Shown: piece by piece, positions 37,662 to 58,080 of the stretch
Layout of the letters: each line of letters opens with the position of its first letter
How positions within the stretch are numbered: the first letter of the stretch is position 1
Assembly (NCBI GenBank): GCA_048940925.1
Contig: JBHLOC010000007.1
Location: forward strand, 32,001-96,000
DNA: 64,000 nt
Reading direction: 5' to 3'
DNA from: Promethearchaeota archaeon
GTDB taxonomy: Archaea > Asgardarchaeota > Lokiarchaeia > Sigyniarchaeales > SOKP01
Program-made: the position numbers and the translations under genes
The notes under the pieces: model-generated
What the model saw: only the letters and a program-made list of their open reading frames with translations
The model's database searches: none
Told to the model about the DNA's origin: nothing

Positions 37662-40600
37662 ATGAAGCAAAAAAGAAGAATCTTAACTCTTATAATTTTA
37701 GCTCTTATACTTTTTTCTTTTTCAAATATTCAATTCTTCCTTAAATTTTTTCCAAATTATCATGATAATAATGAAGATGAGATATCTGAATTAAATTCTG
37801 CGAAATATTGGCCAAATTTAAATAGAATACATATAGATGATAGCAATACTTCTTTAAATTGGGCAACCACTGCTGCTAATAATGATTGGTGTAATGGTTC
37901 AGGAACTTGGAGTGATCCTTATATTATCAAAAATGTAATTATAGATGGTCAGGAGAGAGAAAGTTGCATTTTAATTAAAAATTCAAATGTTTTCTTCATA
38001 ATTGAAAATTGTACAGTCTACAATACTGGTGATGAGGGTAAATTTTCTGAAGAACCAGGGATTAAATTAATCAATACTAATAATGGAACTTTTATAAGTA
38101 ATAACTGTTCTCTAAATCATTATGGGATAAGATTATTCAACAGCGATAATAACACTTTTTTAAATAATATGATAACTAAGAATGAATTTAAAGGAATAAC
38201 ACTTGAAGATAGTTCTAATAATACTTTTGCTGGAAATGAGATAAGTAACAATTATCTCGATGGAATAGTTTTGGAATCAAATAGTGATCATAATAATATT
38301 TCTCAGAATAAATTATACAATAACTTTGGAAGCGGACTAAGTTTGATGTCCGGTGATAATAATACAATAAACAATAATGATATTTTTAAGAACAGAGAAT
38401 ATGGCATATTTCTTGAAGCCGGTCGTGAAAATACTATAAAAGAGAATGCAATGAAAAAGTGTGGAATTGGTATTTCTCCATCTGAAGAAATAAATACAAA
38501 TATTATCGATACATCAAATACTGTGAATGGTAAAACTTTTTACATATATTTTAATCAGACAGATTTAGATAATTCTGATTTTTCTTCCCCTAGACTAGCC
38601 GGGCAAATTATACTAATAAAATGTAATGATTCAATAATTTCTAATTTTAATCTTTCTCAAACGTCAATTGGATTAATCTTATATGAATGCCAAAATAATA
38701 CAATATCGAATAACCTTGTTAATAATTGTACCAAATCTGGATTCTATCTGAACTTTTGTAACAATAATACAATATATAACAATTCAGTAAATTATAATTT
38801 TGATGGTATAGAATTATTCGGATGCATTAATACGAGAATTAATAGAAACAACGCAACAAATAATAAATGGAATGGGATAAAATTATCTGAAAATTGTGTT
38901 TTTAATATAATTCATGGGAATAATGCTTCCAATAATATCGAAACGGGAATATATACTGAATATTGTGAAAGTAATAACATCACTAAAAATCTTGTACTTA
39001 ATAATGAAAGAGCAGGAATAAGAATAAAAGCAAGCCACTTTACTTTAATTCAAAACAATACCGCAAATAACAATATCAATACTCGTGTCATTAATTTTGG
39101 TGTTGGAATTCAAATAGGAGAAACAGGTTCTTTTGAACAAAGTAATAACAATACAATTACTGAAAATATAATGAATAATAATAGTTATGTGGGATTGTTT
39201 CTAGATGGAAAAAATAACACAATAACAAAAAACAATTTTACTAATTGTGGTCTAATTTTTGGTTACTATTCAGATATAACTACTATTGATGACTTTAGTT
39301 CCCAAACAATTGATAGATCTAATCTAGTAAACAATAAAATTCTTTACTATTATTTTAATTCTACCCACTTAAGCAATGATAACTTTTCTAATGCGGGACA
39401 AGTGGTCTTGGTCAGATGTAATGATTCCCTAATTTCTAATTTGCAATTAGAACGAGCTAGCCTACCAATATCTTCATACTATTGTGATAACATTACTATT
39501 TCCAATAACAATCTTACAGAAAATACTTTTAGTGGAATTTATTTAATTCAAAATAGTAATTCTAATATCTCAAATAATCAATTAAATACAAATATAAATA
39601 TTTATTTAGAGGTTTCAACTGTGATCACATTTGGATTTGGTATATATTTAGAAGACTGTTATAATTGTAATTTTACATTCAATAATGCTACTAATAATGG
39701 ATATGGAATCTATTTAAAGGATAGCAATAATATTCTCATAAAAAATAACACTTTTTATGATAATAATATCGCAGGGATTAGTATTTTAGCAAATCAACCA
39801 GGAAAATGCGATGATATTAATTTTTCAGCTAATTACATGAGAAATTGTGGTGTATATATTTATGAATCCCCATACTTACAAAACTCTAAATTATATATTG
39901 ATAAAACAAATTTAATTAATAATAGACCACTTCATTATTTTTCTAACACTAATAGCTTAAAATCGAGTGATTTTATAAATCCTGGGCAGATTATACTATT
40001 AAATTGTAATAATTCAGAAATTTCAAATCTTAGTTTTTCTAGATGTACAATAGGTATTTCTTTATTTTATTGCCACAATGCATCTGTTTATAACATTAAT
40101 TCCTCAAAAAATTCAATGTATGGATTTGTGTTGGTTCTAAGTAATAATTGTCATCTGTTCAACAATACAGCATCTCAGAATCTTTTTGGAATCTTCAATG
40201 TGTTTTGTTTTAATAATACTTATACGGGAAATACCTTGAAGAATAGTAAATCGATATTTATAGATAATTTATATTTCGGAGGAGGCATTTGTAGTATGTG
40301 GTACAATGATAATCTAAATATTGTCCGAAATACTTTTGAAAACTGCTCTAATGGAATTATGATATATTTAGAAGGACCTGGGATTTTTTTTAATGTCTCT
40401 GATAATTTATTAGATAATAATATTCAGTATGGTATTTGGTTAAAAAATTGCCATAATAGCACATTTACAAAAAACAAAATTCAAAATAATGGAATTGGAA
40501 TATATTTAGACTTCTACTCTGATAATAGTAATAATAGTTTTTTGTACAATAACTTAAATGGGAATGATTTAAATGCCCAAGATAATGGAGATAATAATAA

Positions 40601-42455
40601 ATGGGACGATGGATTTGCAGGAAATTATTGGGATGATTACACAGGTATAGATGCAAATATTGATGCGATAGGTGATAATTCTTACACAATTCGTGGTTTA
40701 GCTTATAATAAAGATAATTATCCGTTAATTTATCGAACTGATATTGATACTGACGGAGATGGTCTAATAAATTACGAAGAATATGTTTTAGGAAAAGATC
40801 AATACCGCACTAATGTTACAAATCCCGACACAGATTATGATGAATTATCTGATTATTGGGAATGGAAAAATTCTACTAATCCATGGAATCCAGACACTGA
40901 TTTTGACAGAATGCCTGATGGGTGGGAAGTATTCAATTTTTTAAATCCTATATCCGGAGATGATAATATCACTGATGCTGATAATGATTTTCTCTTGAAT
41001 GTATATGAATTCAAGAATGGCACTGATCCAAATAATGAAGATACTGATGGAGATACATTTTTGGATGGTATTGAGGCTGGTGCTTTACCAGAATATAACT
41101 GGTGGACAGATCCCTTGAATAAGTGGTGGTATCCAATGCCTAATCTAGTGGCTGTAGGTTTTCAAATAACTTCTGCTGAATTAGGAAAACCATTTGTTTT
41201 AAACATAACGATAAAAAACGATGGAATCTGGGATGTAGAAAATATAACAATCATCATTTGGGTTGAGTATTTGGGACAAGCTTTATATAACAATTCTGAA
41301 AATCCTATTCCATTATTAGAAGTGGATGAGGTGTATCAAGATTTTATTCAAAGTGACATACTGCCAAGTGAGAAAATTCCTCAAGGAGGGCGTTTGGTTA
41401 TGGAATTAAGATTAGATCCTGAAAATGTAATTAATGAAACTTACAGTAATAAAGATGGATCTGCTCGACACAGAAGTGAAGATGATAATATCCTAGAAAC
41501 AATCTTGAATATTGGTGGACAATTACCTGGTGGTGGTTTTGATATCTTTTGGATTATTTTAATTGTAATTGGAGTAATAGCTCTAGCGGGAATTACAAGT
41601 ACTTATATGGTTTTAAGACCAAGAATGAAAAGAAGAGCTGCTTTTAAAAGACAAATTGAAACAGCGAAAACGGATATTAATAACTTTGAAATCAATATGC
41701 GTAGTTTTATTAAAACAAAATTAATAGACACTTACGAATCCAGATGGTGGGATGAAGGAGTCCCTGAATACATTAGAACCCCCATTGGAACCAAAATAAA
41801 AACCTTGAAACCAAAGAAACCAGGAGTGCCAATCGATAGAATGGATTTGTTAGATTTCACACATTATAGTGCGATAATCACACAAAGAGATAATTGGGAA
41901 CATACATTCTCAAAAATCTTTCCCGAAAGAGGCGTGGTTGACACAAATTTCGAAAACCTAAGAATTATTAAAAGAGATCTTGCTGAAGGTACAATTACAC
42001 GTGAACGGTTATCCAGTTATTCATTATTTCTACATAATATAACAAATTTCTTTAGAAAAGGATTCAATGTGTTTTTAAGCTACTCCACACTCGATACAGA
42101 ATACTTTAATGTTAAGGAAATCGCTAAACGTTTAGAATCATTTCCAGAAATTGATAGAGTCTTTTTCTGGGAAGAAGATAGTGGCGAAAACATCGTCACC
42201 TATATGGAAAGGACTTTAGCAATGACAAAGGCATTTGTATTCTTTTGCACGGAACATTCTGTTAGATCTAAGGCAGTAGAAGATGAGTGGCAAGCAGCTT
42301 TTCAGATGAGGAAAAAAGGACTGCTAAAAATAGTACCTGTATATGAAAATGAAAATATAATTCCCTTCTTATTGATGCCCTTATTAAATGTCAAATACAC
42401 AAAAGATGATTTTGATGGTTTTATTCAAAAGCTTTATGAGGAAATTCTTAGATAA
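37662..42455 (+). CDS. Single-pass receptor-like protein: beta-helix (NosD) ectodomain, DxDxDG Ca-binding repeats, CARDB-like Ig, TM, Swt1-like HEPN, C-terminal TIR
   Basis: N-terminal hydrophobic signal; many GI.L..S.NN.I..N repeats; DTDGDG/NPDTD repeats; PNL...I.N.G...LDPEN.I.E; TM IFWIILIVIGVIALAG; E..MRSFI...WW..VP...DF..II...NW..F; TIR VFLSYS...VFF...S.AV..EW...IVPV. Confidence 0.88.
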   Translation: MKQKRRILTLIILALILFSFSNIQFFLKFFPNYHDNNEDEISELNSAKYWPNLNRIHIDDSNTSLNWATTAANNDWCNGSGTWSDPYIIKNVIIDGQERESCILIKNSNVFFIIENCTVYNTGDEGKFSEEPGIKLINTNNGTFISNNCSLNHYGIRLFNSDNNTFLNNMITKNEFKGITLEDSSNNTFAGNEISNNYLDGIVLESNSDHNNISQNKLYNNFGSGLSLMSGDNNTINNNDIFKNREYGIFLEAGRENTIKENAMKKCGIGISPSEEINTNIIDTSNTVNGKTFYIYFNQTDLDNSDFSSPRLAGQIILIKCNDSIISNFNLSQTSIGLILYECQNNTISNNLVNNCTKSGFYLNFCNNNTIYNNSVNYNFDGIELFGCINTRINRNNATNNKWNGIKLSENCVFNIIHGNNASNNIETGIYTEYCESNNITKNLVLNNERAGIRIKASHFTLIQNNTANNNINTRVINFGVGIQIGETGSFEQSNNNTITENIMNNNSYVGLFLDGKNNTITKNNFTNCGLIFGYYSDITTIDDFSSQTIDRSNLVNNKILYYYFNSTHLSNDNFSNAGQVVLVRCNDSLISNLQLERASLPISSYYCDNITISNNNLTENTFSGIYLIQNSNSNISNNQLNTNINIYLEVSTVITFGFGIYLEDCYNCNFTFNNATNNGYGIYLKDSNNILIKNNTFYDNNIAGISILANQPGKCDDINFSANYMRNCGVYIYESPYLQNSKLYIDKTNLINNRPLHYFSNTNSLKSSDFINPGQIILLNCNNSEISNLSFSRCTIGISLFYCHNASVYNINSSKNSMYGFVLVLSNNCHLFNNTASQNLFGIFNVFCFNNTYTGNTLKNSKSIFIDNLYFGGGICSMWYNDNLNIVRNTFENCSNGIMIYLEGPGIFFNVSDNLLDNNIQYGIWLKNCHNSTFTKNKIQNNGIGIYLDFYSDNSNNSFLYNNLNGNDLNAQDNGDNNKWDDGFAGNYWDDYTGIDANIDAIGDNSYTIRGLAYNKDNYPLIYRTDIDTDGDGLINYEEYVLGKDQYRTNVTNPDTDYDELSDYWEWKNSTNPWNPDTDFDRMPDGWEVFNFLNPISGDDNITDADNDFLLNVYEFKNGTDPNNEDTDGDTFLDGIEAGALPEYNWWTDPLNKWWYPMPNLVAVGFQITSAELGKPFVLNITIKNDGIWDVENITIIIWVEYLGQALYNNSENPIPLLEVDEVYQDFIQSDILPSEKIPQGGRLVMELRLDPENVINETYSNKDGSARHRSEDDNILETILNIGGQLPGGGFDIFWIILIVIGVIALAGITSTYMVLRPRMKRRAAFKRQIETAKTDINNFEINMRSFIKTKLIDTYESRWWDEGVPEYIRTPIGTKIKTLKPKKPGVPIDRMDLLDFTHYSAIITQRDNWEHTFSKIFPERGVVDTNFENLRIIKRDLAEGTITRERLSSYSLFLHNITNFFRKGFNVFLSYSTLDTEYFNVKEIAKRLESFPEIDRVFFWEEDSGENIVTYMERTLAMTKAFVFFCTEHSVRSKAVEDEWQAAFQMRKKGLLKIVPVYENENIIPFLLMPLLNVKYTKDDFDGFIQKLYEEILR

Positions 42456-42564
42456 AATAGACATTGATATTTTTAAATGATAATATCTAAAAAAACATAA
42501 AGCTAAAAGTTTAATTATTAACTTCTGTTAAAGAATAATAATAGAAAAATAATGTGAATCAATT

Positions 42565-44581: not shown

Positions 44582-47110
44582 ATGAAATTAGGCAAAAATT
44601 TACTAATTGCAATAATATTAGGTTCATTGTTAATGATAACTAAACCTATATTCAAAGTTAATGATAACTTTTGTGATAATAATTATGTTCCAAACACAAT
44701 GGAAGAGAAGATTTCTACATCAAATATTCCCCCAATACGCACTACTGAACCTCCTCGTGAAGAAACGGTCTGGATGACAGGAAGTTATAATTCTCCAACT
44801 CAATTTCTTCCATGGAGTGCTCAATTACCCCCAGGTGCAGATGCTGGTATGTATGAAGCTTTATTCGGTTATAATAGTGTAACTAAGACACTTGTTCCGT
44901 GTATAGGTATTAGTTATTCATGGAGTGTAACTGGTAATAGTATTACTATTGATCTAAATCCTCTTGCTAAATGGTCTGATGGTTCACCTATTCAGGCTGA
45001 TGATGTAGTTTATAGTTATGAATTAGCCTCAAATCAAACTAGATACAGAAAGGATTTTACAGCGAGGTTTATTGATCTTGTTGAAGTAGATACGGATACT
45101 GTTCGATTTGATATTAATACAACAGCAGGTTATAACTTTAGTAGGCAAGTTGAAATTTGGATTATGTATAATATTCCAATTGTACCTAAACATGTATGGT
45201 CTCTAATTGTTGCTGATAAGGGTACTAATGATTTTATAGGAATTGGTTATCAATATGATTGGTTTGATTCAATAGATGTTCCTAACGAATGGAAAGTGAT
45301 ATCTGGACCTTATGCTCCTGTTTATCGAAATGCATCAAAAACTACTTGTGCATATCAGTATAGAGAGGATTGGTGGGGTGCTGGAATCCTTTACCAAGAT
45401 CTTCCTAATGCAGCTGAAGATCCACCAAAATATATAGGAACAATTAGATTAACTTCTAATATTGAACAAAACCTCGCCTTGTTGCAAGGAGATGTTGATT
45501 TACATGCGAGTTATTATTATCATATTTGGGAAATCTGGGAAGATGCTACTCCGTCAGATCCTGGGTATTATATCAGTTGTTGGTATGATCATGATCCCCC
45601 TTATCAATTAGCTATTGGCCCTCTTATAACTCTTGCACCCAATCATCTTCTTGCAGATTCTCCATTAGGAGTAAAAAATTTCAGAGAAGCCTTAGCTTAT
45701 GCTATTAATTATACATCTATCCCTGCTGCAGCCGCTTCTGGATATTGGTCAAAATCTAAACCTGGATATATTGATAATAATAGCGCATTACATGCCCCAT
45801 ATTATAATGGGTCTATTACAGCAAAATATCAAAAATTTTTGAATGTCACTAATGCTATTGTATTATTACAGAGCATTCCTGGTATGACAGGATCTGTAGC
45901 ATCTGGATGGACATATAACGGACATGCTGTTGGACCTTACGAAGCAATTGTTCCTATTGGTTGGAGTGATGTTATTGCATATACAGAAATGGTTTGTAAT
46001 GATATTACTGACAACTTAGGAATTACTATTACAGCCACACAAGTTGATTTTGAAACTATTTTTCAATCTTCGATAGAAAATAATAATTTTGATTTTGCTA
46101 TATTTCGTGTCGGAAACCGAATATCAGATCCTCCTCAAAGATTTCTTGATTATATGAGAGGAACACACTTATGGAACAAAAATGCAACCAATTGGAATAA
46201 TCCTACATTTGAAGCTCTATGGCAGACGCTTGAAACTGCAAATGAAACAACTTATGCAAAGAATCTGAACCTAATGCAAGAAATTTTAGCTGAAGAAGTT
46301 CCAGAAATTCCTGGGTTTGTTGATGGATATTGGTATGCTTTTAGTGAATATTTTTGGGAAGGTTGGGCAAGCGAAGCAAATAAATTTCAACAACTTGTTA
46401 CAACTTGGACAGATAATCAGTTTGTAATTAAAACAAGATTAATGTTGAACTTAAAATCAATAGACCGCAAAAGTCCGATGATTACTATTAATTCACCAAG
46501 TGAAAATCAAGTATACGGTGAATTTGCACCAAATTTTAACGTGGAAGTATATGATGCTAATCTTGATACGATGTGGTACACCATAGATGGAGGATTTACT
46601 AACATTACATTTATTACCAATGGAACAATCGATCAAAATAATTGGAGTGCTCAAGTTGACGGTCCTATGGAGATAATTTTTTATGCAAATGATACATTAG
46701 GTCATATAAACTCCAATCAAGTCATAATCAATAAAGATACTACAGTCCCTGAAATAATTATCAATTCTCCATCTCCCGATCAAGTATTCAGAGGTAATCC
46801 TCCTGAATTCAGTTTATCTATAAATGAAAGTAATTTAGAATCAATTTGGTATACATTAGATAATGGATTAGTGAATATTACATGTGAGATATCAGGACAA
46901 ATTGATCAAAATTATTGGAATGCGCTAAAACCGGGAAGTTATACCCTTAGATTTTATGCTAATGATACAATGGGTTATAAAGGATTTTCGGAAGTATCTA
47001 TTAAGAAAAAAGCAAGGGTAATTTCTGTGTATAATCCAATAATTATATCTATAATTACTGTATTGGTAACTATAACTATTAGGTATAAAATAAAGAAAAA
47101 ATTGAAATAA
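44582..47110 (+). CDS. Family-5 (OppA/DppA-like) solute-binding protein with two C-terminal Ig-like repeats and membrane anchor
   Basis: YE.LF.YN, KWSDG.PI.ADDV.YS, SGPY, FR.ALA.AIN, Q.ILAEE.P.IP; then P.I.INSP...WYT.D.G repeats; ISVY-TM-KKK tail. Confidence 0.85.
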   Translation: MKLGKNLLIAIILGSLLMITKPIFKVNDNFCDNNYVPNTMEEKISTSNIPPIRTTEPPREETVWMTGSYNSPTQFLPWSAQLPPGADAGMYEALFGYNSVTKTLVPCIGISYSWSVTGNSITIDLNPLAKWSDGSPIQADDVVYSYELASNQTRYRKDFTARFIDLVEVDTDTVRFDINTTAGYNFSRQVEIWIMYNIPIVPKHVWSLIVADKGTNDFIGIGYQYDWFDSIDVPNEWKVISGPYAPVYRNASKTTCAYQYREDWWGAGILYQDLPNAAEDPPKYIGTIRLTSNIEQNLALLQGDVDLHASYYYHIWEIWEDATPSDPGYYISCWYDHDPPYQLAIGPLITLAPNHLLADSPLGVKNFREALAYAINYTSIPAAAASGYWSKSKPGYIDNNSALHAPYYNGSITAKYQKFLNVTNAIVLLQSIPGMTGSVASGWTYNGHAVGPYEAIVPIGWSDVIAYTEMVCNDITDNLGITITATQVDFETIFQSSIENNNFDFAIFRVGNRISDPPQRFLDYMRGTHLWNKNATNWNNPTFEALWQTLETANETTYAKNLNLMQEILAEEVPEIPGFVDGYWYAFSEYFWEGWASEANKFQQLVTTWTDNQFVIKTRLMLNLKSIDRKSPMITINSPSENQVYGEFAPNFNVEVYDANLDTMWYTIDGGFTNITFITNGTIDQNNWSAQVDGPMEIIFYANDTLGHINSNQVIINKDTTVPEIIINSPSPDQVFRGNPPEFSLSINESNLESIWYTLDNGLVNITCEISGQIDQNYWNALKPGSYTLRFYANDTMGYKGFSEVSIKKKARVISVYNPIIISIITVLVTITIRYKIKKKLK

Positions 47111-47340: not shown

Positions 47341-48861
47341 ATGAAAAATATGAATATTTCAAAATTTTTAATAATAAGAATTGTTTATGGTGTTATTTTG
47401 GCATTGTTTATAACACTTGCTTTTTTTCCATACTTTTCTGTAACTTATACATACGGACCACATTCTTATACAGAATATTCTTATGGATTTTTTGAATTGC
47501 TTTTTGGAGGTTGGGTTGGAATAGGGCTTATTGGTGCATCAGTTATTCTTTTAAATTCACAAAAAATAATCAAACCAATACTCTTTGGGATTTCTGGATC
47601 TGTCATAATATTGATTAATTTGATTATCCGCACTCGCATTCTCGGGATGACTCTCGAATTAAGTTATTATGTGAGTATTGTATTACTGATTAGTCTATTC
47701 GCAATAAACATATTATCATTTGTATATAGAGAAACAAAAGTTGTAGTAAAATTTATTCCAAAAAAGAAAAGAATTAAGATCGAGGAACCAGAAGAATTAG
47801 AAATTGATTGGGAAAAGAGAAAAGAAGAAGAGGCAAAACAAATTTTGAAAGAACTTCAGCTTAAAATGATAGATGCTGATAATCTAATTAAAGAACAAAA
47901 GATAAAAGTAGCACTAAAAAGTTTAAATAAAATTAAAGCAATAGCTAAAAATCATAACTTAATTGAGCTTTTGGACGAATCAAAATCAAAAATCATTCAA
48001 TGTAAAGAATTGGAATCAGAAATAAAGAGGAGAAAAAAACAACTTAAAGTTAAAGGTAAACTTGAGAAAAGAATATCAAATGTTGAAGTTTTAATCGAAG
48101 ATTATGAATTAACTAAAGCATTGGAAAATTTAATCGAAATTAAGCAGATAGCAAAAACTAATGAAATTTCTGATTTATTAGGAATTATTGAAGACAGAAT
48201 CAGATATTGTAAGAGTTTAGAAACAGATACAGTTAATAGAATCAAAAATACAATTTTAAACTATGCAACAAAGCTTACTCGCCTTGAACTTGTAGATATC
48301 AGTGAAAAAAGTGGAATAAAAGATGAAAATTTAATTGAGAATGTGATTCTTGGAATGATTAGGAATAAAGAAATCAATGCTGAATATTTTTCAAGTTCTA
48401 AATCAATCGCATTTTATAAAGAGGAAAAAGAAGCAGTTCCTAAGCCAAAACTAAAGGAAGAAAAAGTTCTTAAAGTTTTCTTAAGTTATTCTACGTTAGA
48501 TGCTGATCATTTCAGGATCTCTGATATTGTTAATAATTTAGAAGAATTCTCAGAAATTGGAAAGGTTTCATATTGGCAAGCAGATAGTAAACAAAACATT
48601 GTTGAATTTATGGAGGAAACTCTTAAAGATTGCGATGTTTTCGTGCTGTTTTGCTCTGAAAATTCAAGAGGATCAAAAGCAGTAAAAGATGAGTGGCAAG
48701 CTGCCTTTCAAATGAGGAAAAAGGGATTACTGAAGATTATTCCCGTCTATGAAGAAGAAGAGCTTATTCCCGTCTTATTATGGCAGATGCTTAACGTTAA
48801 ATTTACAAAGGATAATTTTGATGGATTTATCCAAAGGCTTTATGAAGAAATTTTAAGATAA
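47341..48861 (+). CDS. 4-TM membrane protein with helical repeats, PCI-like winged helix and C-terminal TIR
   Basis: Four N-terminal TMs; two amphipathic helical repeats; RLELVDISEKSG...IENVILGMIRNKEINAEY; VFLSYST...SKAVKDEWQAA. Confidence 0.85.
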   Translation: MKNMNISKFLIIRIVYGVILALFITLAFFPYFSVTYTYGPHSYTEYSYGFFELLFGGWVGIGLIGASVILLNSQKIIKPILFGISGSVIILINLIIRTRILGMTLELSYYVSIVLLISLFAINILSFVYRETKVVVKFIPKKKRIKIEEPEELEIDWEKRKEEEAKQILKELQLKMIDADNLIKEQKIKVALKSLNKIKAIAKNHNLIELLDESKSKIIQCKELESEIKRRKKQLKVKGKLEKRISNVEVLIEDYELTKALENLIEIKQIAKTNEISDLLGIIEDRIRYCKSLETDTVNRIKNTILNYATKLTRLELVDISEKSGIKDENLIENVILGMIRNKEINAEYFSSSKSIAFYKEEKEAVPKPKLKEEKVLKVFLSYSTLDADHFRISDIVNNLEEFSEIGKVSYWQADSKQNIVEFMEETLKDCDVFVLFCSENSRGSKAVKDEWQAAFQMRKKGLLKIIPVYEEEELIPVLLWQMLNVKFTKDNFDGFIQRLYEEILR

Positions 48862-48887
48862 ACTTTATTCATTTTTAATACTTTTAA

Positions 48888-51875
48888 ATGGTAATATTAT
48901 TGCTTAAGAATAAAAAAAAGAATTTAACACTCTTATTTAGTTTTTTTATCCTATTCATTATCATCAATCTTAACAGCCGTTATAATAATTTCAATATACC
49001 TGTTAATAAAAATTTTGAAACCGATAAAAGAACTAATTTGAAAGAGCTTAAGACATCAACGATCTATTATGAAATTACAATTAACGATCTTCTAACATCT
49101 AATACTACAAATATGGGTAATTGGACCTGGGCAAGAACTCAACCTTGGTGTACTCAAGGATCAGGAACTTCAGAAGACCCTTATGTAATTGAAAACAGCA
49201 CATTTACAAATTCTTCATTATATGGTGCAGGTCTTAGTATTTATAATTCAAGAAGATATTTTATTATCAGAAATTGTACATTTAAAGATGCGCCTTTTGG
49301 TATTCATCTTTGGTATGCCACAAATGGGACAATTATTAAAAATAAAATGCATAACAACTGGGAAGGTATATGGGCAATTAGAAGTGATCAGAATATTATA
49401 TCAGAAAATAATGTAACCAACAATGGTATTGGCATTCGAATGTGGATGGGATGTGATAATATCAATATCACTAAAAATATCGTATCAGAAAGCAGTTATC
49501 TTGGAATTTATGTGGATTATGGCCACAATTGTCTTATTTCAGAAAATATAGTAAATGACAATAAAGCTAATATGGGGATTGGTTTATATAATTATAGTTC
49601 TAATAATTTGGTTGTAGATAACACTTTAGAGCGAAATGTAGATGGAATTAATATAGGCTGGGCTTATAATACTACGATTGCTAACAATATTTTGAATGAA
49701 AATAATCATACTGGACTTTATATGAAATTGAGTAAAAATATCACAATTTTAGGTAACATTTTAGAGGATAATAATGTTAGTGGAATTATTTTGGAAAGTG
49801 GTAACAATAACACAATTACAGGAAATGTAATAGAACGTAATAACATCAGTGGAATTGAGACTATGGGTGGGTTTAATTTTAACCATATCTATGAGAACTA
49901 CTTTATCATGAATGGAAAACATGCAATTGAGAAAGGATCGAATAATGACTGGAATAGCACTACAATTGGTAATTATTGGGATAATTATACAGGTTTAGAT
50001 CCAGATCAGGATGGAATTGGTAATATCCCTTATAATATTAGTTTATCGCCTTTAATCCAAGACCATTTACCAATTGTAGACAATGAACCGCCATTTATAA
50101 GAATTGATTCCCCAAAGCCTGGTGATAAATTTAGTTTTAATGCCCCAAGGTTTAGTGTTTCTATAATTGGTGAAGATCCTTATTCTATGTGGTATACTTT
50201 GGATGGAGGGTTAAACAACTACACATTCACGGAAAATGGTAAAATAGATCAAACAGCTTGGGATGCTCTACCCTCAAGTACAATTACTCTTAAATTTTAT
50301 GCGCGTGATAAACCATGTAATATTGGGACTTCAGAGGTTTCTATAATAAAGGACATCGAAGTTCCAAACATAATAATTAATTCACCGAGTTCTAATGAAA
50401 TTTATGGTAATAAAGCACCAAATTTCAAAATTTCCATTGATGATCCAAATTTGGATTCTATCTGGTATACTTTAGACAACAATCTAATGATTCTAACTTA
50501 TGAAAAGAATGGTACAATTAGTCAAAATATATGGAATGGATTTGGAAATGGAACTGTTACTATCAAATTTTATGCAAATGATACTCTCGGAAATTTAGGT
50601 ACAGCAGATATTAATATAAGAAAAGACATAATTTCACCCATAATAACAATTAAAAACATTGAGGAAAATCAACGATTTGGTAAGAAGCCTCCATCTTTTA
50701 ATGTCTCTATAAATGAACCAAATTTAAACCTAACATGGTATTCAATATATAATGGTACTCAATGGTCTCAAGAGATCATTTTTACAGAACTAATAGGCAA
50801 TATCGATAAAGTATTATGGAAATCATTACCTAAAGGAAATGTAACAATTAGGTTTTACGCTAGCGACTTAGCAGGGAATATTGGGTTTGAAGAGATCTTA
50901 TTCATTAAAAGCTATAAAGAAATCCTCTCTCCAACTGGAGTAGTTATTTTAATCACTGTCATTGCTATTAGTTCTACAGTGGTAATAAGTGGCACGATTG
51001 TATGGAAAAAGAAAAAATTCTCAAGGAAATTAAAAGAAGGAGGAAAAATAGAAGATAAAAAGATACCTAAAATTAAAAACATAGTCCAAAAAAGAATGAT
51101 ATTAATTGATAACTTAATCCAAGAACAAAAATTAAAGGAGGCGATTAAACATTTAAATCAGATTAGAGAGATAGCCCAAATTTATGGATTAAAATACTTA
51201 TTGGCGAATATCCAAGAAAAGTTAGACGAGTGTAAAAAAATAGAATTAGATACAATTAATTCAATTAAAAAAGCAATAAACGATCTAGGAAGGAAAAATC
51301 TTCGCTTTCAAATTGTAGAAATTAGTAAAAAAAGTGGTGTTAAAGATGAGAAGATAATAGAAGACATAATTCATGAGATGATTAAAAATAAAGAAATTTC
51401 TGCTAAATATTATCCAAAGTCTGACACAATCGTATTAAGTCTAATGTTATTTCCTGTATTAAAGCTTAAAGAAATGAAGGAAATCAACTTGTTTTTAAGT
51501 TATTCAACCCTAGATTCAGAATACTTTCAGATACCCAAAATTGTTAGATATTTAGAAGAATATCCTGAAATTGGTAGGGTCATGTTTTGGGAAGCTGATA
51601 GTAAAGCAAATATAGTAGAATATATGGAAAAGACTTTGAGAATTACAAATGTGTTTGTATTGTTTTGTTCTGAAAATTCAATGAAGTCTGCTTCTGTAGA
51701 AGGAGAATGGCACGCAGCCTATCAAATGAACAAGGAAGGACTTCTAAAAGTTATATCTGTTTATGAAGATAAAGACCATATTCCAAGGTTATTATGGCCT
51801 TTATCAAATGTTAAATACTTAAAGGAAGATTTTCATGAATTTATTCAAACTCTTTTTAGAGTAATTATGGAATAA
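48888..51875 (+). CDS. Single-pass receptor-like protein: NosD beta-helix, 3 Ig-like repeats, TM, PCI-like domain, TIR
   Basis: Signal; GSGT..DPY.IEN; GI.....NN.I..N repeats; GNYWD; three WY[TS]-containing Ig-like repeats; TM; LFLSYST...SASVEGEWHAA. Confidence 0.88.
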   Translation: MVILLLKNKKKNLTLLFSFFILFIIINLNSRYNNFNIPVNKNFETDKRTNLKELKTSTIYYEITINDLLTSNTTNMGNWTWARTQPWCTQGSGTSEDPYVIENSTFTNSSLYGAGLSIYNSRRYFIIRNCTFKDAPFGIHLWYATNGTIIKNKMHNNWEGIWAIRSDQNIISENNVTNNGIGIRMWMGCDNINITKNIVSESSYLGIYVDYGHNCLISENIVNDNKANMGIGLYNYSSNNLVVDNTLERNVDGINIGWAYNTTIANNILNENNHTGLYMKLSKNITILGNILEDNNVSGIILESGNNNTITGNVIERNNISGIETMGGFNFNHIYENYFIMNGKHAIEKGSNNDWNSTTIGNYWDNYTGLDPDQDGIGNIPYNISLSPLIQDHLPIVDNEPPFIRIDSPKPGDKFSFNAPRFSVSIIGEDPYSMWYTLDGGLNNYTFTENGKIDQTAWDALPSSTITLKFYARDKPCNIGTSEVSIIKDIEVPNIIINSPSSNEIYGNKAPNFKISIDDPNLDSIWYTLDNNLMILTYEKNGTISQNIWNGFGNGTVTIKFYANDTLGNLGTADINIRKDIISPIITIKNIEENQRFGKKPPSFNVSINEPNLNLTWYSIYNGTQWSQEIIFTELIGNIDKVLWKSLPKGNVTIRFYASDLAGNIGFEEILFIKSYKEILSPTGVVILITVIAISSTVVISGTIVWKKKKFSRKLKEGGKIEDKKIPKIKNIVQKRMILIDNLIQEQKLKEAIKHLNQIREIAQIYGLKYLLANIQEKLDECKKIELDTINSIKKAINDLGRKNLRFQIVEISKKSGVKDEKIIEDIIHEMIKNKEISAKYYPKSDTIVLSLMLFPVLKLKEMKEINLFLSYSTLDSEYFQIPKIVRYLEEYPEIGRVMFWEADSKANIVEYMEKTLRITNVFVLFCSENSMKSASVEGEWHAAYQMNKEGLLKVISVYEDKDHIPRLLWPLSNVKYLKEDFHEFIQTLFRVIME

Positions 51876-52038: not shown

Positions 52039-54999
52039 ATGATAAAAAGAAATAGATATTGTCTTGTTTTACTTTTTCTAATAGTTATATTTAATATTAT
52101 TCCATTGATTAGATTCAATTTCAATGAACCTAATAAAAAAATTATTATTACTGATGAGGATTTTCATGCTAAAATCAATTCTGTAAAAACATCAAATCCA
52201 ATAGTTTTATCGGACGGATTTGCGGGTATAGAATGGAATGATGATATTAGTCAAACTCCTTCAATCGTCATAGATACTAATGGCACTATTCATGCAGTCT
52301 GGTCAGACTTTACTAATGGTCCGTGGGGTAATGATCCTGAGATAATGTATGCAAATTATTCCTCTTCACTTGGATTATCTTATGCTACAGTCATTTCTGA
52401 TGGATATAATGGTGATTATTGGAATTCGGGTGGTAGCTATTTTCCAGATATTGCTATCGATAATTATGGAAATATTCATGTTGTTTGGTATGATGATACT
52501 GATGGTCAATGGGGCACTGATGAAGAAATAATGTATGTGAATTACACATCTTCCGCTGGTTGGTCAAATGCCACTGTAATTTCGGATTTATATGGTGGAA
52601 GTGTATGGAATAATCGTTATAGCAGGGATCCTTCAATTGCTATAGATAATATTGGAGGAATTCATGTTGTTTGGAATGATGATACTGATGGCGAATGGGG
52701 AACTGATACAGAAATAATGTATGTAAATTATACATCTTCCACTGGCTGGTCAAATGCTTGTGTCATTTCGGATTTATATGGCCAAATTAAATGGAATAAT
52801 GATTTTAGTGAGAATCCTTCAGTTGCTGCTGATAATATTGGAGGAGTTCATGTAGTTTGGCGAGATCTCACTGATGGTCTATGGGGCACTGATCCTGAAA
52901 TAATGTATGTAAATTATACCTCTGATTCTGGTTGGTCAAACATTACTGTAATTTCGGATGGATTTGGGGATAAATATTGGAATAATGAGTGGAGTGACTA
53001 TCCTTCAATTACAACAGATAATTTTGGAGGAATTCATGTTGCTTGGCAGGATGATACTGATGGTGAATGGGGAACTGATACCGAAATAATGTATTGTAAT
53101 TATACATCCTCAAATGGATGGTCTAATGCTTCGGTTATCTCAGATTTATATGGAGGAATTGAATGGAATGATGGTTATAGTGGTACTCCTTCAATTGCTA
53201 CTGACAATATTGGAATAGTCCATGTAGCTTGGGTTGATGGAACTGCTGGTCCATGGGGAAGTGATGGGGAGATAATGTATTGTAATTATACATCTTCAAA
53301 TGGATGGTCTAATGCTACAGTAGTTTCTGACGGATTTGATGGGACATATTGGGATACAGGTGCGAGTGGTAATCCTTCAATTGCTATAGATAATGCTAGA
53401 ACTATTCATATAGTATGGCAAGATGATTTTGCATTATGGTGGGGTCCTGATTCTGATATAGTATATATTTTCATTGATAATATCGTTCCAGTTATTTCAA
53501 TAAAAAATCCTACTCCAAACCAATTTTTCGGAATAGCTCCTCCAAATTTTAGTATAGAAATTAGTGAAGATCGTTTGGATAGAATTTGGTATATTTTGAA
53601 TGATGATATAAAGACTTTTATATCTAAAAGCAATGGTACAATAAATCAAAATGTATGGGATAGAATTTATAATGGAACTATAACTATCATTTTTTATGCA
53701 AATGATACTGTAGGAAATTTAGGTTCTGCAAATGTTAAAATAAGAAAAGATTTAATTTCTCCTATAATAATAATTAACAATATTGAAACGAATCAACGGT
53801 TTGGTAAAGAATCTCCATCTTATAGCTTATCTATAAATGAACCAAACTTAAACATATCATGGTATTCAATATATAATGGTACTCATTGGTCTCAAGAGTT
53901 TATTTTTACTGAACTAGAAGGAAAAATTAATCAGTTATTATGGGATTCATTACCTAAAGGAAATGTAACGGTTAGGTTTTATGCTAATGATTTAGCGGGG
54001 AATATTGGATTTGAAGAGATCTCAATTATTAAAAGCTATAAACAAAATAAATTTCCTATTGAATTAATTGCTTTAATTTCAGTTATTGCTATTGGGTCCA
54101 CAATAGTATTAAGTGGTGTAATAGTACGAAAGAAGAAGATTTTTACTAAGATATCAAAAAAAGAAGGAAAGATTGAAGCTAAAGAGTTAATCAAAGATAA
54201 AAATTATCTCCAAAAAAGAAGGTTGTTAATAGATGATTTAATAAAAAGAAATGAATTTAAAGAGGCGATTAAAAATTTAAACCAGATTAAGGAAATAGCC
54301 CAACGTTATGGATTAAAATATCTATTGACGAATACCGAAGAAAAAATAGATGAATGTAAAAAATTAGAATTGGAAACTATTAAATCCATTAAAGAGATAA
54401 TAAAAAATTTAGGTAGGAAATATATTCGCGTACAAGTTGTAGAGATTAGCAAAAAAAGTGGCATTAAAGATGAAAAAATGATAGAAGATATAATTCATGA
54501 AATGATTCAGAAGAAAGAAATTCTTGCCAAATATTATTCTAGTTCTAAAACAATCACATTTGGCCTAATGGTAATCCCTGTATTGAAGCCAAAGTTAAAA
54601 AGGAAAAATGATGTATTTTTAAGTTATTCAACCTTAGATTCAGAATACTTTCAGATACCCAAAATTGTAAAAAGTTTAGAAGAATATCCTGAAATCGGCA
54701 GGGTTATGTTTTGGGAAGCGGATAGTCAAGCAAATATCGTAGAATATATGGAAAAAACTTTGAGAATTACGAATGTTTTTGTATTGTTATGTTCTGAAAA
54801 TTCTTTCAAGTCTGAATCGGTAAAAGGTGAATGGCAAGCAGCTTATCAGATGGATAAAGAAGGCCTTTTGAGAATTATCCCTGTTTATGAAGTTCAAGAC
54901 CACATTCCCCGGTTATTATGGCCTTTACCAAGTGTCAAATATATAAAAGATGATTTTGATATATTTATTCAAAATCTTTATAAAACAATTTTAGAATAA
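52039..54999 (+). CDS. Single-pass receptor-like protein: 7-repeat beta-propeller, 2 Ig-like repeats, TM, PCI-like domain, TIR
   Basis: Seven ~62-aa repeats VISD...WN...S..PSIA.D..G.IHVVW.DDTDG.WG.D.EIMY; TM; VFLSYST...SESVKGEWQAA. Confidence 0.88.
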   Translation: MIKRNRYCLVLLFLIVIFNIIPLIRFNFNEPNKKIIITDEDFHAKINSVKTSNPIVLSDGFAGIEWNDDISQTPSIVIDTNGTIHAVWSDFTNGPWGNDPEIMYANYSSSLGLSYATVISDGYNGDYWNSGGSYFPDIAIDNYGNIHVVWYDDTDGQWGTDEEIMYVNYTSSAGWSNATVISDLYGGSVWNNRYSRDPSIAIDNIGGIHVVWNDDTDGEWGTDTEIMYVNYTSSTGWSNACVISDLYGQIKWNNDFSENPSVAADNIGGVHVVWRDLTDGLWGTDPEIMYVNYTSDSGWSNITVISDGFGDKYWNNEWSDYPSITTDNFGGIHVAWQDDTDGEWGTDTEIMYCNYTSSNGWSNASVISDLYGGIEWNDGYSGTPSIATDNIGIVHVAWVDGTAGPWGSDGEIMYCNYTSSNGWSNATVVSDGFDGTYWDTGASGNPSIAIDNARTIHIVWQDDFALWWGPDSDIVYIFIDNIVPVISIKNPTPNQFFGIAPPNFSIEISEDRLDRIWYILNDDIKTFISKSNGTINQNVWDRIYNGTITIIFYANDTVGNLGSANVKIRKDLISPIIIINNIETNQRFGKESPSYSLSINEPNLNISWYSIYNGTHWSQEFIFTELEGKINQLLWDSLPKGNVTVRFYANDLAGNIGFEEISIIKSYKQNKFPIELIALISVIAIGSTIVLSGVIVRKKKIFTKISKKEGKIEAKELIKDKNYLQKRRLLIDDLIKRNEFKEAIKNLNQIKEIAQRYGLKYLLTNTEEKIDECKKLELETIKSIKEIIKNLGRKYIRVQVVEISKKSGIKDEKMIEDIIHEMIQKKEILAKYYSSSKTITFGLMVIPVLKPKLKRKNDVFLSYSTLDSEYFQIPKIVKSLEEYPEIGRVMFWEADSQANIVEYMEKTLRITNVFVLLCSENSFKSESVKGEWQAAYQMDKEGLLRIIPVYEVQDHIPRLLWPLPSVKYIKDDFDIFIQNLYKTILE
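52195..53470 (+). repeat. Seven intragenic ~186-bp tandem repeats encoding propeller blades
   Basis: Recurring gatgatactgatgg..tggggN and gaaataatgtat units at ~186-bp spacing; boundaries approximate. Confidence 0.85.
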
Positions 55000-55140
55000 A
55001 TCCAATTTTTTATAACAAAAGTATATAAGATTCAATATCTTAATGTTGATTTAAAAAAATTAGTATAAATGAAATCTCAAACAAATTATAGACTATTTTA
55101 ATTTGTAAACTTTCGAATTTAATTCAAATTTAGTGTTTCT

Positions 55141-58080
55141 ATGAAATTAAGTATTAAAATAGAGAAAATGAAAAGAATCACCCTTATTTTATTATCTATG
55201 ATTGTCATATTTAGCATTGTTTCATTAATCAAATTTGACACAAAAGAACCTATACACATAAAAAATGGAAATGATGATGATTTTAATATTGAATTAAGCT
55301 CTGTAAAATATACAAATGGAACAATTATTTCTGATGGGTTCAATGATGTGTATTGGAATGATCAACTAAGTAGTTCTCCTTTAATTGCTATTGATATCTA
55401 TGGAAACCTCCATGTTGTGTGGCATGATGATACTGATGGTCCATGGGGTGTTGATTCTGAAATAATGTATGCAAAATATTCAATATCAGCGGGTTGGTCT
55501 AATGTTACTGTAATTTCGGATTTGTATGGCTGGAATGATGGTGATAGTGTAAAGCCTTCAATTGCTACGGATTCAAATGGTAATGTTCATGTAGCATGGG
55601 AAGATGATACTGATGGTCCATGGGGTATTGACTCTGAAATAATGTATGCTAATTATTCTTCATCTGTTGGGTGGTCTAACCCTGTTGTAATTTCAGATTT
55701 ATATGGCGGAGTTGAATGGAATGATGGGAATAGTGGGAATTCTTCGATTGCAATAGATAATGATGGAGATATTTATGTAGTCTGGGATGATAACACAGAT
55801 ACAATATGGGGTCCCGACTCAGAAATAATGTTAGCAAAATTTTCACCTTCAATTGGTTGGTCTAACGCTAGTGTGATCTCAGATAATTTTGGGGGTCAAT
55901 CTTGGAATGATGGCTGGAGTAGAGATCCTTCAATTGCTATCGACAACGATAAAAACATTCATGTTGTATGGCAAGATGATACTGACCATGGTTCGTGGGG
56001 TACTGATACTGAAATTATGTATAGAAAATATGTTTATTCATGGTCTATGTGGACTAATGATACTGTAATATCGGATACTTGGTGGGTTCAAAGTTGGAAT
56101 GATGGTTATAGTGGAAATCCTTCAATTGCAATAGGTGAGTTTGGATTCCCACATATTGTATGGATTGATGATACTGATGGCGAATGGGGCACTGATATTG
56201 AAATAATGTATATAGCGCAACCCTATGATAATGCTACTGTAATCTCGGATGGATTTGAAAGTGTATATTGGAATGATGATTTCAGTGGTTATCCTTCAAT
56301 TACTACCGATATTGATGGAAACGTTCATGTAGTATGGTTCGATAATACTGATGGCTCGTGGGGGATTGATTCTGAAATTATGTATGTAAAATATTCTTCC
56401 TTAAGTGGGTGGTCTAATGCCACTGTAATTTCGGATGGATTTGGAGGCATATATTGGAATGATGATAATAGTAAGAATCCTTCTATTATAACAGATCAGA
56501 ATGGAAATATCCATGTAGTGTGGGAAGATGATACAAATGGAAAATGGGGTATGGATACCGAGATAATGTATATCTTTACCGATTATCCCGCTCCAGTTAT
56601 TACTATAAATAATCCAAGGTCAAATGAGATTTTTAGATCTCTAGCACCAAGCTTTAATATTACTATTAAAGAGTCAAATTTAGACACGTTTTGGTATACC
56701 CTTGATGGAGGTATAACAAATATTACGATCACAGAATTCATAGGAACGATTAATCAAATAGAGTGGGACAAGATTGGAAGATCTACTGTGGAATTAACTT
56801 TTTATGCGATTGATGTTGTGGGAAATATTGGTTTTCAATCAGTTATTATTGAAAAAGCTATTGATTATTGGCAAGTAAATCCAATTATTATTGATGACAA
56901 GGGAACTGGAGATTTCACTTGGTCTGAAGTAGCAATGCAGGGATGGTGTACCGGTTCTGGAACTTCAACAGATCCTTATATTATTGAGTTTTTAAAAATT
57001 GATGGGCAGAATGGCTATAATTGTATTGAAATTAGGCATTCTAAAGTTTTTTTCGTAATTGGAAAATGTCTTTTGTTTAATTCTGGAACAGGATCAAGAT
57101 TTGCAGGATTTAATTTATTCAATGTTTCTAATGGAATTTTGACTGATAATAATTGTTCTTATAACAATGGATACGGCACAATTATAATGAATTGCTCATA
57201 TATCACTATAACAGAAAATGAAGTGAATAATAATGAAATTGGTGGGATATATTTAGAATCTAGCCGTTTTATCAACATTTCAAATAATAAAGATACTATA
57301 AGTTACAATGGATTATATGGAATCTATTTAATATTTAGTAATGATAATACGATTACAGACAACACTATAAACTACAATCAGAATGGTATTTACTTGTATA
57401 GATCTAATGATAATACTATAATAGGAAATAAACTTATTGGGAATAAAGTACCAATTACAGAAATTGAATGTAGTGGAAATATTATTAAAGGCAATAGCAT
57501 TGGTATAAAGAAATTTCCCATTGAATTTTTAATAATAATTGGTACTCTAATAGGTATTACAATAATATCTAGTGCTATTATTTTATTGAGGAAAAAGATC
57601 TTTAAGAAATTATTTCCTAAAAAGGGTGGAATAATCAAAGAGAAAGGCAAAAGAATTTCTGTAACTAAAATTGGAGAAAAGCATAAGCTTAATGTGTTTC
57701 TAAGCTATTCTACTATAGATTCTGGATATTTTCAGATACCAAAAGTAGTACAACATTTAGAAAAGTATCCTGAAATTGACAAAGTTTCAAGCTGGGAAGC
57801 TGATAGTAAGGAAAATATAGTAGAATTTATGGGAAAAACTTTAAAGGACACTGATGTATTTGTGTTATTTTGTTCTGAAAATTCTGTTAATTCTGAATCT
57901 GTTAAAGGTGAATGGCAAGCAGCTTATCAATTGAATAAAGCTGGTCTTTTAAAAATAATTCCTGTATACGAAATTCAAGAACATATTCCTCGATTGTTAT
58001 GGCATATATTAAATGTAAAGTATTCAAAAAAAGATTTCAATGGATTTATTGAAAATCTTTATCATGAAATATTAAGATAA
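55141..58080 (+). CDS. Single-pass receptor-like protein: 7-repeat beta-propeller, Ig-like repeat, NosD beta-helix, TM, TIR
   Basis: Seven propeller repeats like those of 52039..54999; CTGSGT..DPY module; TM FLIIIGTLIGITII; VFLSYST...SESVKGEWQAA; no PCI-like insert. Confidence 0.88.
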   Translation: MKLSIKIEKMKRITLILLSMIVIFSIVSLIKFDTKEPIHIKNGNDDDFNIELSSVKYTNGTIISDGFNDVYWNDQLSSSPLIAIDIYGNLHVVWHDDTDGPWGVDSEIMYAKYSISAGWSNVTVISDLYGWNDGDSVKPSIATDSNGNVHVAWEDDTDGPWGIDSEIMYANYSSSVGWSNPVVISDLYGGVEWNDGNSGNSSIAIDNDGDIYVVWDDNTDTIWGPDSEIMLAKFSPSIGWSNASVISDNFGGQSWNDGWSRDPSIAIDNDKNIHVVWQDDTDHGSWGTDTEIMYRKYVYSWSMWTNDTVISDTWWVQSWNDGYSGNPSIAIGEFGFPHIVWIDDTDGEWGTDIEIMYIAQPYDNATVISDGFESVYWNDDFSGYPSITTDIDGNVHVVWFDNTDGSWGIDSEIMYVKYSSLSGWSNATVISDGFGGIYWNDDNSKNPSIITDQNGNIHVVWEDDTNGKWGMDTEIMYIFTDYPAPVITINNPRSNEIFRSLAPSFNITIKESNLDTFWYTLDGGITNITITEFIGTINQIEWDKIGRSTVELTFYAIDVVGNIGFQSVIIEKAIDYWQVNPIIIDDKGTGDFTWSEVAMQGWCTGSGTSTDPYIIEFLKIDGQNGYNCIEIRHSKVFFVIGKCLLFNSGTGSRFAGFNLFNVSNGILTDNNCSYNNGYGTIIMNCSYITITENEVNNNEIGGIYLESSRFINISNNKDTISYNGLYGIYLIFSNDNTITDNTINYNQNGIYLYRSNDNTIIGNKLIGNKVPITEIECSGNIIKGNSIGIKKFPIEFLIIIGTLIGITIISSAIILLRKKIFKKLFPKKGGIIKEKGKRISVTKIGEKHKLNVFLSYSTIDSGYFQIPKVVQHLEKYPEIDKVSSWEADSKENIVEFMGKTLKDTDVFVLFCSENSVNSESVKGEWQAAYQLNKAGLLKIIPVYEIQEHIPRLLWHILNVKYSKKDFNGFIENLYHEILR
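55315..56580 (+). repeat. Seven intragenic tandem repeats encoding propeller blades
   Basis: Same unit as 52195..53470 with small indels in blades 2, 4 and 5; boundaries approximate. Confidence 0.85.

Follow-up and report, generated by a model that had tools for sequence, protein, structure and literature searches.

We report an array of five co-oriented genes for membrane-bound TIR proteins in a Promethearchaeota archaeon, together with a downstream gene, here called the partner, whose product joins RelA/SpoT-like, TPR and SLOG domains. These genes lie in a stretch of 64,000 nucleotides that was analysed as a whole and is referred to as the window (GenBank assembly GCA_048940925.1, contig JBHLOC010000007.1, positions 32,001 to 96,000 of the forward strand). 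We propose, with moderate confidence, that the array is the sensor arm of a Thoeris-like pathway in which the TIR sensors face outwards and the partner acts as messenger reader and effector. A more specific version, which we offer tentatively and rate somewhat short of even, is that the TIR domains of single-pass receptors in Loki-type archaea would make a NAD+-derived messenger on engagement, and that an SLOG/TPR-gated RelA/SpoT-like enzyme would read it. Bacteria and plants are known to signal through the TIR domains of cytoplasmic sensors, and only animals through those of membrane receptors; if the proposal is true, a large and fast-evolving set of archaeal receptors would extend to prokaryotes the coupling of TIR chemistry to sensing at the surface.

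The array and the partner consist of the following open reading frames (ORFs), given in window coordinates with Pfam matches in brackets.

37662..42455, + strand: receptor 1, 1597 amino acids (aa), with a signal or anchor segment, a NosD-like beta-helix ectodomain of ~1260 aa with D-x-D repeats, a transmembrane helix at residues 1293-1311 with a lysine/arginine-rich inner flank, and TIR_2 at residues 1470-1591, nt 42069-42434 (NosD 4e-65, Beta_helix 1e-62, TIR_2 1.9e-13).
47341..48861, + strand: four-transmembrane (4TM)-TIR protein, 506 aa, with four N-terminal transmembrane helices and no ectodomain, a linker that is helical plus winged-helix (PCI-like), and TIR_2 at residues 379-500, nt 48475-48840 (TIR_2 7e-15, ThsB_TIR 4.8e-5).
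48888..51875, + strand: receptor 3, 995 aa, with a signal segment, a beta-helix, three Ig-like modules, a transmembrane helix at residues 684-702, a PCI-like linker, and TIR_2 from residue 869, nt 51492-51872 (NosD 6e-33, Big_13 3e-5, TIR_2 1.2e-9).
52039..54999, + strand: receptor 4, 986 aa, with a signal segment, a seven-repeat propeller, Ig-like modules, a transmembrane helix at residues 677-695, a PCI-like linker, and TIR_2 from residue 859, nt 54613-54996 (TIR_2 1.7e-12).
55141..58080, + strand: receptor 5, 979 aa, with a signal segment, a seven-repeat propeller, one Ig-like module, a beta-helix, a transmembrane helix at residues 797-815, a short linker, and TIR_2 from residue 852, nt 57694-58077 (NosD 4.5e-18, SBBP 1e-5, TIR_2 2.2e-12).
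58548..61136, + strand: the partner, a candidate signal reader/effector of 862 aa, with a RelA/SpoT-like nucleotidyltransferase (residues ~48-225), TPRs (~315-410), an LSDAT/TRPM-type SLOG domain (~495-700, nt 60030-60647) and a C-terminal alpha/beta domain without assignment (~715-862) (RelA_SpoT 5e-9, 36.9 bits against a cut-off of 27; TPR_1 2e-13).

All five array proteins exceed the curated Pfam cut-off for TIR_2 (PF13676) at their C-terminus (E 1.2e-9 to 7.3e-15, 39-56 bits against 28). Their final ~132 residues are 52-77% identical and align without large gaps, with the shared motifs FLSYS, FV.F/LCS, S..V..EW and PVY. An original prediction, made from the sequence alone, had described five co-oriented genes with a homologous end bearing TIR hallmarks, and the ORFs, domain matches and motifs were all found. 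Across the genome (4.8 Mb in 90 contigs) there are eight close copies of the array TIR, five of which fall within this 20 kb; the three further paralogues elsewhere also match TIR_2, and two distant LRR-TIR genes are additionally present.

Modelling confirmed the expected flavodoxin-like alpha/beta TIR fold. The AlphaFold (AF2) model of the receptor 4 TIR, based on an alignment of the eight paralogues, has a predicted local distance difference test (pLDDT) score of 90.2 and alternating strands and helices. At E≤1e-3, Foldseek matched the model to 87 PDB structures; the 50 listed first are without exception TIRs or SEFIR-type (TM-score 0.6-0.79; 0.7-0.79 against solved TIRs), among them the SPARTA TIR-APAZ protein, MyD88, AbTir, SARM1, TLR2 and Cat1 with a probability of 1.00. 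Sequence identity of the array TIR to solved TIRs is 14-22%, and 14-18% to TLR2 and MyD88. One glutamate is invariant in the array. The model puts it in helix 72-86, and the HMMER alignment pairs it with the helix-C W-x-x-x-E glutamate of Cat1 and of the TIR-TPR protein 9m0n. It does not vary in the TPR-TIR or LRR-TIR proteins of related genomes either, and at least 90% of 39 family representatives have it. The helix-C glutamate (the position of BcThsB E85 and SARM1 E642) is required for NAD+-processing TIRs; it is missing from most TIRs of the TLR/IL-1R type, which serve as scaffolds (10.64898/2026.04.20.719644). Its conservation in the array is compatible with NAD+ processing, but alone it does not prove activity.

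Four of the five proteins start with a charged N-terminus and a hydrophobic segment and have one more transmembrane helix 130-300 residues before the TIR, giving a single-pass type I layout with a C-terminal cytoplasmic TIR, while the fifth (47341) has four transmembrane helices. The inner flank of the receptor helix carries five to seven lysines or arginines within 15 residues. Over six receptors of the genome, N-x-S/T sequons are in excess in the N-terminal, outer parts (140 observed, 88.6 expected from composition) and in deficit in the C-terminal, inner parts (2 observed, 8.7 expected); in receptor 1, 52 of the 53 precede the transmembrane helix. Because of the basic flank and this distribution of sequons, a predicted topology with the variable, putatively N-glycosylated heads outside and the TIR in the cytoplasm is well supported by hydropathy, the positive-inside rule and sequon counts. 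This agrees with the earlier claims that the TIR is C-terminal to the membrane helix, on the opposite side from the ectodomain, and that the heads are rich in sequons.

The heads of the array are NosD-type right-handed beta-helices, seven-repeat propellers and bacterial Ig-like modules, and those of paralogues on other contigs are SBP_bac_5 and Peripla_BP_6 domains. Each propeller consists of seven 'H[VI][VA]W.D' repeats, which can be read directly from the sequence. In the five array proteins Pfam found no LRR, the heads being NosD/Beta_helix, SBBP-type propeller and Big_13. Four proteins had been predicted to combine a signal peptide with large repeat heads, of which the beta-helix, seven-repeat propeller and Ig-like parts were recovered; the predicted calcium-binding part corresponds to D-x-D-x-D runs (TSP3-like) that are visible in receptor 1 without Pfam confirmation. 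Outside the array, a 490-aa protein encoded at window 27404-28879 (-) has SBBP beta-propeller repeats (Pfam 7e-22) of the type seen in the heads of receptors 4 and 5.

The partner protein combines a nucleotide-sensing fold with a synthetase-like domain. Scanned alone, residues 490-700 score 29.1 bits with LSDAT_prok (cut-off 25.4), and the glycine-rich SLOG loops AGGT, SGGT.SG and G.GG...E are conserved. The model of residues 495-700 has a pLDDT of 88.5, and the 50 PDB structures that match it best all show the MHR1/2 domain of TRPM channels, ADP-ribose (ADPR)-bound TRPM2 entries among them; the partner differs from TRPM2 in having no channel, and its sequence similarity is marginal (E 0.3-0.4 in a profile search of the SLOG region against PDB sequences). 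Like small alarmone synthetases, toxSAS and CapRel, the partner has an N-terminal domain that exceeds the Pfam RelA_SpoT cut-off and matches the YjbM model, covering nearly all of it but at 27.6 bits against an equivalog cut-off of 320; unlike them, it has degenerate acceptor motifs and is fused to TPR, SLOG and a further domain. In this long form, motifs 1, 2 and 4 (the ATP/Mg motifs and E-I-Q-V-R-T) are kept. A 669-aa short paralogue (~40% identical) keeps all five synthetase motifs (RxKxxxSxxxxK, DxxGxR, GYxSxH, E[IV]QIRT and H..W...EH..YK) and falls just below the Pfam cut-off for TPR-S (PF20308; E 1.2e-5, 26.3 bits against 27.6), a family that precomputed database annotation assigns to most close relatives. 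The sole PADLOC match of the 862-aa protein is the candidate model PDC-S33 (1.9e-7).

Within 4 kb of receptor-TIR genes, no other gene recurs as often as the partner (10 of ~26 genomes). All 15 genomes with the long form contain a receptor-type TIR; a TIR gene or remnant lies within 1.7 kb of the partner in 11, a core gene alone stands between in two and the contig ends in two. The TIR gene beside the partner has at least three architectures: in four other genomes it is of the 4TM type and stands directly upstream, elsewhere it encodes a single-pass receptor (876-1900 residues), and one genome retains a remnant. In one genome of another genus, the partner and a TIR gene form a convergent pair in a non-syntenic context, with the core gene on another contig. 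The short paralogue follows one to three tandem TPR(MalT-like)-TIR_2 genes by 47-63 nt in all six genomes with a readable side.

Distant homologues of the partner (26-41% identity) occur in Heimdall-labelled metagenome-assembled genomes (MAGs) and in bacteria, and the surroundings of seven such loci were read. TIR_2 genes are found at four of these (bacterial or metagenomic) and DUF4062-STAND genes adjoin at three, including the Heimdall one; one locus has both, and another has neither, just a NUDIX gene. Among the TIR_2-linked loci, the homologue sits among three TIR_2 genes in a Thermodesulfobacteriota MAG, begins 15 nt after the end of a TIR_2 gene in another record, is flanked on both sides by TIR_2-WD40 genes on a metagenome contig, and in the fourth case has a TIR_2 gene 3.6 kb upstream and a NACHT-TPR gene just downstream. 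DUF4062-STAND genes adjoin the homologues where no TIR_2 gene is adjacent, and a possible kinship of DUF4062 to the TIR was not adopted, since hhalign against the TIR profile gave a probability of only 43% (E 2.5e-4). The argument for linkage is carried by the variety of architectures, the non-syntenic pair, the short paralogue and the distant homologues, and not by the raw neighbour count. Because the SLOG/TPR/RelA-SpoT neighbour is conserved, the signalling half of the original prediction gains support, and the link to a conserved nucleotide-sensing effector makes the receptor reading stronger.

Several observations count against a TIR-to-partner pathway. The tryptophan that canonically precedes the helix-C glutamate is serine or alanine in the array TIRs, although the glutamate itself, aligned at first with that of the canonical S-x-W-C-x-x-E, is kept in all five. 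On the acceptor side of the long-form partner, motifs 3 and 5 are degenerate (GYxSxH to EHYRTY and EH..YK to NQD..KKY), which may mean a modified or inactive nucleotidyltransferase. Between the last TIR gene and the partner there are 468 nt in this genome, and mostly ~500-680 nt among relatives; co-transcription is not implied by such spacing. The region is also syntenic among related genomes, with SDR genes upstream and aminotransferase, BKACE and methyltransferase genes downstream, and part of the long-form linkage is therefore inheritance; arbitrary neighbours of other TIR loci likewise recur in 5-6 genomes. Finally, the TIR family is wider than the partner (81 versus 35 of 400 genomes of the phylum), and no effector gene was found beside the three TIR copies elsewhere in this genome. 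Within the taxonomic family, the partner was found in 31 of 134 genomes; the search with the long form scored two candidates per genome, and 'absent' means not found with this query.

Other arrangements were seen around partner homologues. Tandem arrays of cytoplasmic TPR-TIR_2 proteins of ~700-840 aa occur in other Loki genomes (L098:1558-8998 (+), L094:11048-15885 (-), L097, L103 and L106); lying ~50 nt upstream of the 669-aa RelA/SpoT-TPR-S-SLOG gene, they are a candidate for a compact, operon-like TIR signalling system. The DUF4062-STAND genes (NACHT/AAA_16) at L112:10111-14760 (+), L114:11689-17082 (+) and L096:8105-12097 (-) have WD40 or TPR arms. At two bacterial or metagenomic loci (L108 and L116), TrkA_N and RyR-domain proteins precede RelA/SpoT-SLOG homologues amid TIR_2-WD40 or TIR_2-STAND genes. 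The NUDIX hydrolase gene at L110 is directly upstream of the homologue, an order that recalls the pairing of SLOG with NUDT9-H in TRPM2.

If the proposed pathway operates, a surface event (a virus, a partner cell, a glycan or a solute) would cluster the receptor tails, and the clustered TIR domains would convert NAD+ to a diffusible ADP-ribose-derived messenger. Activation by clustering is suggested here because it is the known behaviour of TIR enzymes. The TPR and SLOG part of the 58548-61136 protein would read the messenger and switch on the RelA/SpoT-like nucleotidyltransferase, whose output, an alarmone-like nucleotide or the pyrophosphorylation of a target, would either stop growth or set off a stress response. 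The system could serve immunity, with virus adsorption as its trigger, or physiology, and among possible ligands the solute-binding heads suggest nutrients and the beta-helices glycans.

Comparison with known systems places this proposal closest to Thoeris defence. Type III Thoeris comprises several TIR proteins and an SLOG effector, and the type VIII effector ThsI senses cyclic ADP-ribose (cADPR), presumably via its TPR (10.64898/2025.12.03.692087). As in these systems, TIR genes stand beside one gene whose product couples an enzymatic effector to a module that senses small molecules (SLOG, TPR), the glutamate at the catalytic position is kept, and the TIR copies are tandem and variable. However, Thoeris TIR sensors are described as cytoplasmic, whereas those of the array are membrane-bound with extracellular heads of 650-1260 residues. 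The effector head of the array is RelA/SpoT-like and not one of the known types (SIR2-SLOG, Macro-TM, caspase-like and others); a RelA/SpoT effector is not mentioned in the main text of that study, and neither PF04607 nor LSDAT appears in its supplements, as far as these sources are accessible. The array SLOG is of the LSDAT/TRPM rather than the ThsA type, and, unlike Thoeris, the locus is not in a recognisable defence island. No defence-island or mobile-element context was found around it, the flanks being metabolic genes with even GC content.

The Pfam ThsB_TIR family is above cut-off in one of the five array proteins (24.1 bits against 21.2) and below it in the other four, and the ThsB models of PADLOC match one of the five weakly (E 7e-4 to 2.5e-3). 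PADLOC gave no match to Rst_2TM_1TM_TIR at E≤0.01 with the five cytoplasmic parts and the whole 4TM protein. Conflict systems combining TIR, TPR-S and SLOG were predicted by Burroughs and Aravind (J Bacteriol 2020), as reported in 10.1101/2023.05.26.542521, which also describes TIR genes as consistent neighbours of a sensor-type-TPR protein, sometimes with an LSDAT SLOG. In the BcTir/Tpr operon, the N-terminus of BcTpr is of the glycosidase type, whereas that of the array partner is RelA/SpoT. If true, our proposal would add a new, RelA/SpoT-like effector class to TIR pathways.

We used a profile of the eight TIR domains to define the extent of the family. Among 1.84 billion representatives, 1509 clusters matched at E≤1e-3, of which 164 also passed E≤1e-30. 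The proteins are 170-2857 residues long and nearly always end in the TIR; of the top 100 members, about 40 have an N-terminal hydrophobic segment and a transmembrane helix before the TIR, and the others are 3-4TM, soluble or tandem-TIR proteins, the last with 2-4 TIR repeats. All 39 receptor-type representatives match TIR_2, and their heads are mostly NosD/beta-helix (33 of 39), with SBP_bac_5 in three, Peripla_BP_6 in two, and PKD, FG-GAP, fn3 and propeller domains among the remainder. An atlas search for look-alikes of the receptor cytoplasmic part returned only generic TIR clusters, with scores below 0.8. In a species-representative genome collection, all 50 of 50 related loci are from Asgard MAGs, mostly labelled Promethearchaeota, a phylum of the Asgard kingdom Promethearchaeati, and this supports the assignment of the window to Asgard archaea. 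Within the phylum the subfamily occurs nearly entirely in the window's own class; of the 53 genomes of the genus 27 have it, each with 1-10 copies. Close TIR relatives are thus found only in Asgard genomes, mostly Loki-type, and the family is patchy, multi-copy and mosaic.

The mosaic character is visible within the array itself. From the stalk onwards to the C-terminus, receptors 3 and 4 agree at 62% identity, yet their heads differ, and receptors 4 and 5 share a propeller (52% identical) while their middle parts differ. In the closest relative, whose partner protein is 91% identical, the same positions hold just short TIR frames of 98 and 188-262 residues. Given the mosaic paralogues and these short frames, the interval is a hot spot of gain, loss and shuffling. 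The diversified receptor family first suggested from this one locus is accordingly borne out, with 164 clusters and swapped heads.

Such patchiness, with 1-10 copies and mosaic paralogues as in conflict genes, would also fit a simpler scheme in which the TIR alone is a suicide or depletion effector: on engagement at the surface, such as by an adsorbing virus, the clustered tails would burn NAD+, as SARM1 does or in abortive infection, with no second messenger and with a functionally independent RelA/SpoT-SLOG gene. The TIR fold and the conserved helix-C glutamate are as expected from it, as are the many genomes with the TIR family in which no partner was found and the three copies in this genome without a partner nearby. 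Yet depletion leaves the recurrent linkage to TIR genes in two archaeal paralogue groups and in bacteria unexplained, and a diffusible messenger would let distant copies feed one reader, as may be compared with the TIR genes of type III Thoeris. We consider depletion by the TIR alone unlikely.

We consider it just as improbable that the TIR works as a scaffold, in the manner of TLRs and MyD88, with tails recruiting TIR or PCI proteins by homotypic contacts and without catalysis. The same subfamily does include soluble members that are candidates for such recruitment, an LRR-PCI-TIR protein (contig C10) and the 2-4-repeat TIR proteins, and the BB-loop region is highly conserved in the TIR alignment. 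A PCI-like winged helix between the membrane and the TIR would offer a further contact; two proteins, the LRR-PCI-TIR one and an LRR-PCI protein of contig C55, exceed the Pfam cut-off for it, but in receptors 3 and 4 themselves the PCI matches are below cut-off (Pfam E 0.04-0.1) and are leads, as is the weak HEPN_Swt1-like match in the linker of receptor 1 (E 0.0054, below cut-off; PADLOC PDC-M34B 6.6e-10). The invariant glutamate and the SLOG neighbour point instead to nucleotide chemistry.

The two LRR-PCI proteins are cytoplasmic and have a PCI-type winged helix above the Pfam cut-off (L010:6529-7959 (-) on contig C10 and L009:6940-9102 (+) on contig C55). One of them ends in a receptor-type TIR; the other (721 aa, TIR-less) is convergent with the C55 SBP-TM-TIR receptor. 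Both may serve as adaptor proteins for the PCI-like receptor linkers.

Least probable is that the array encodes ordinary surface or adhesion proteins, with the TIR as a structural anchor or oligomerisation plug and the partner adjacent through conserved synteny only. In favour of this, the loci often contain surface proteins with beta-helix, Ig-like or solute-binding domains but no TIR, and the syntenic region includes a core gene and has metabolic genes on its flanks. Yet a 130-residue domain that stays 52-77% identical with an invariant glutamate at the active-site position while the heads are swapped, and a partner family linked to TIR genes far beyond the synteny block, including in bacteria, are hard to reconcile with it. 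The interval contains one such TIR-less protein:

44582..47110, + strand: TIR-less stalk paralogue, 842 aa, with a signal peptide, SBP_bac_5 (Pfam 8e-26), two Ig-like modules and a C-terminal transmembrane anchor at residues 813-831, leaving merely 11 cytoplasmic residues.

Its Ig-like stalk is 40-44% identical to the stalks of receptors 3 and 4.

Returning to the proposed outward-facing TIR pathway, its layout of signal peptide, repeat or Ig-like ectodomain, one transmembrane helix and C-terminal cytoplasmic TIR is that of TLR/IL-1R proteins, and the array TIR fold matches the TLR2 and MyD88 structures. The differences lie in the components: the heads are NosD-like beta-helices, propellers and solute-binding domains instead of LRRs, the TIR fits the prokaryote-dominated TIR_2 rather than PF01582 (which only 2 of the 39 receptor-type relatives also match), and MyD88-type death-domain adaptors were not seen. 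The likeness to TLRs is thus one of layout and, judged from sequence, may be convergent. The 'TLR-style' label of the original prediction accordingly survives as a description of layout, not of LRR heads and not of a specific kinship to animal TIRs; beyond that label, its picture of surface receptors that signal inwards is partly supported, with the TIR fold, the opposite-side topology, the position of the glutamate, the diversified family and a candidate signalling neighbour in its favour. On the animal side, some TLR TIRs, including that of human TLR4, are reported to make cADPR in a 2026 preprint (10.64898/2026.04.20.719644).

If true, the proposal describes a prokaryotic outside-in TIR pathway that unites the receptor logic of TLRs with Thoeris chemistry among the archaea nearest to eukaryotes, and provides a concrete system for how Asgard cells perceive viruses, partners or nutrients. 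The array is also relevant to the question of a single or a repeated origin of the receptor-TIR layout. We found no paper on Asgard receptor-TIR proteins or on a RelA/SpoT-type Thoeris effector, which is weak evidence of novelty given partial coverage of the literature.

One further gene of the interval was considered as a component and rejected. The coiled-coil gene at 42565-44145 (+), encoding 526 aa, lies inside the TIR hot spot and recurs beside TIR genes; the protein has no Pfam, NCBIfam or PADLOC match. It is a near-universal core gene, single-copy and constant in length, which 112 of 135 genomes of the family share at 55-82% identity, and is unlinked from the RelA/SpoT-SLOG gene in several genomes. 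We treat it as a synteny anchor, a conserved Loki core gene.

Two minor features of the window complete the picture. A 33-codon cysteine-rich ORF (seven cysteines) at window 58091-58192 (-), in the gap before the RelA/SpoT-SLOG gene, may be due to chance, and a NAD kinase gene at window 31931-33037 (-), 4.6 kb upstream of the first TIR receptor, puts NAD metabolism close to putative NAD-consuming domains, probably by coincidence.

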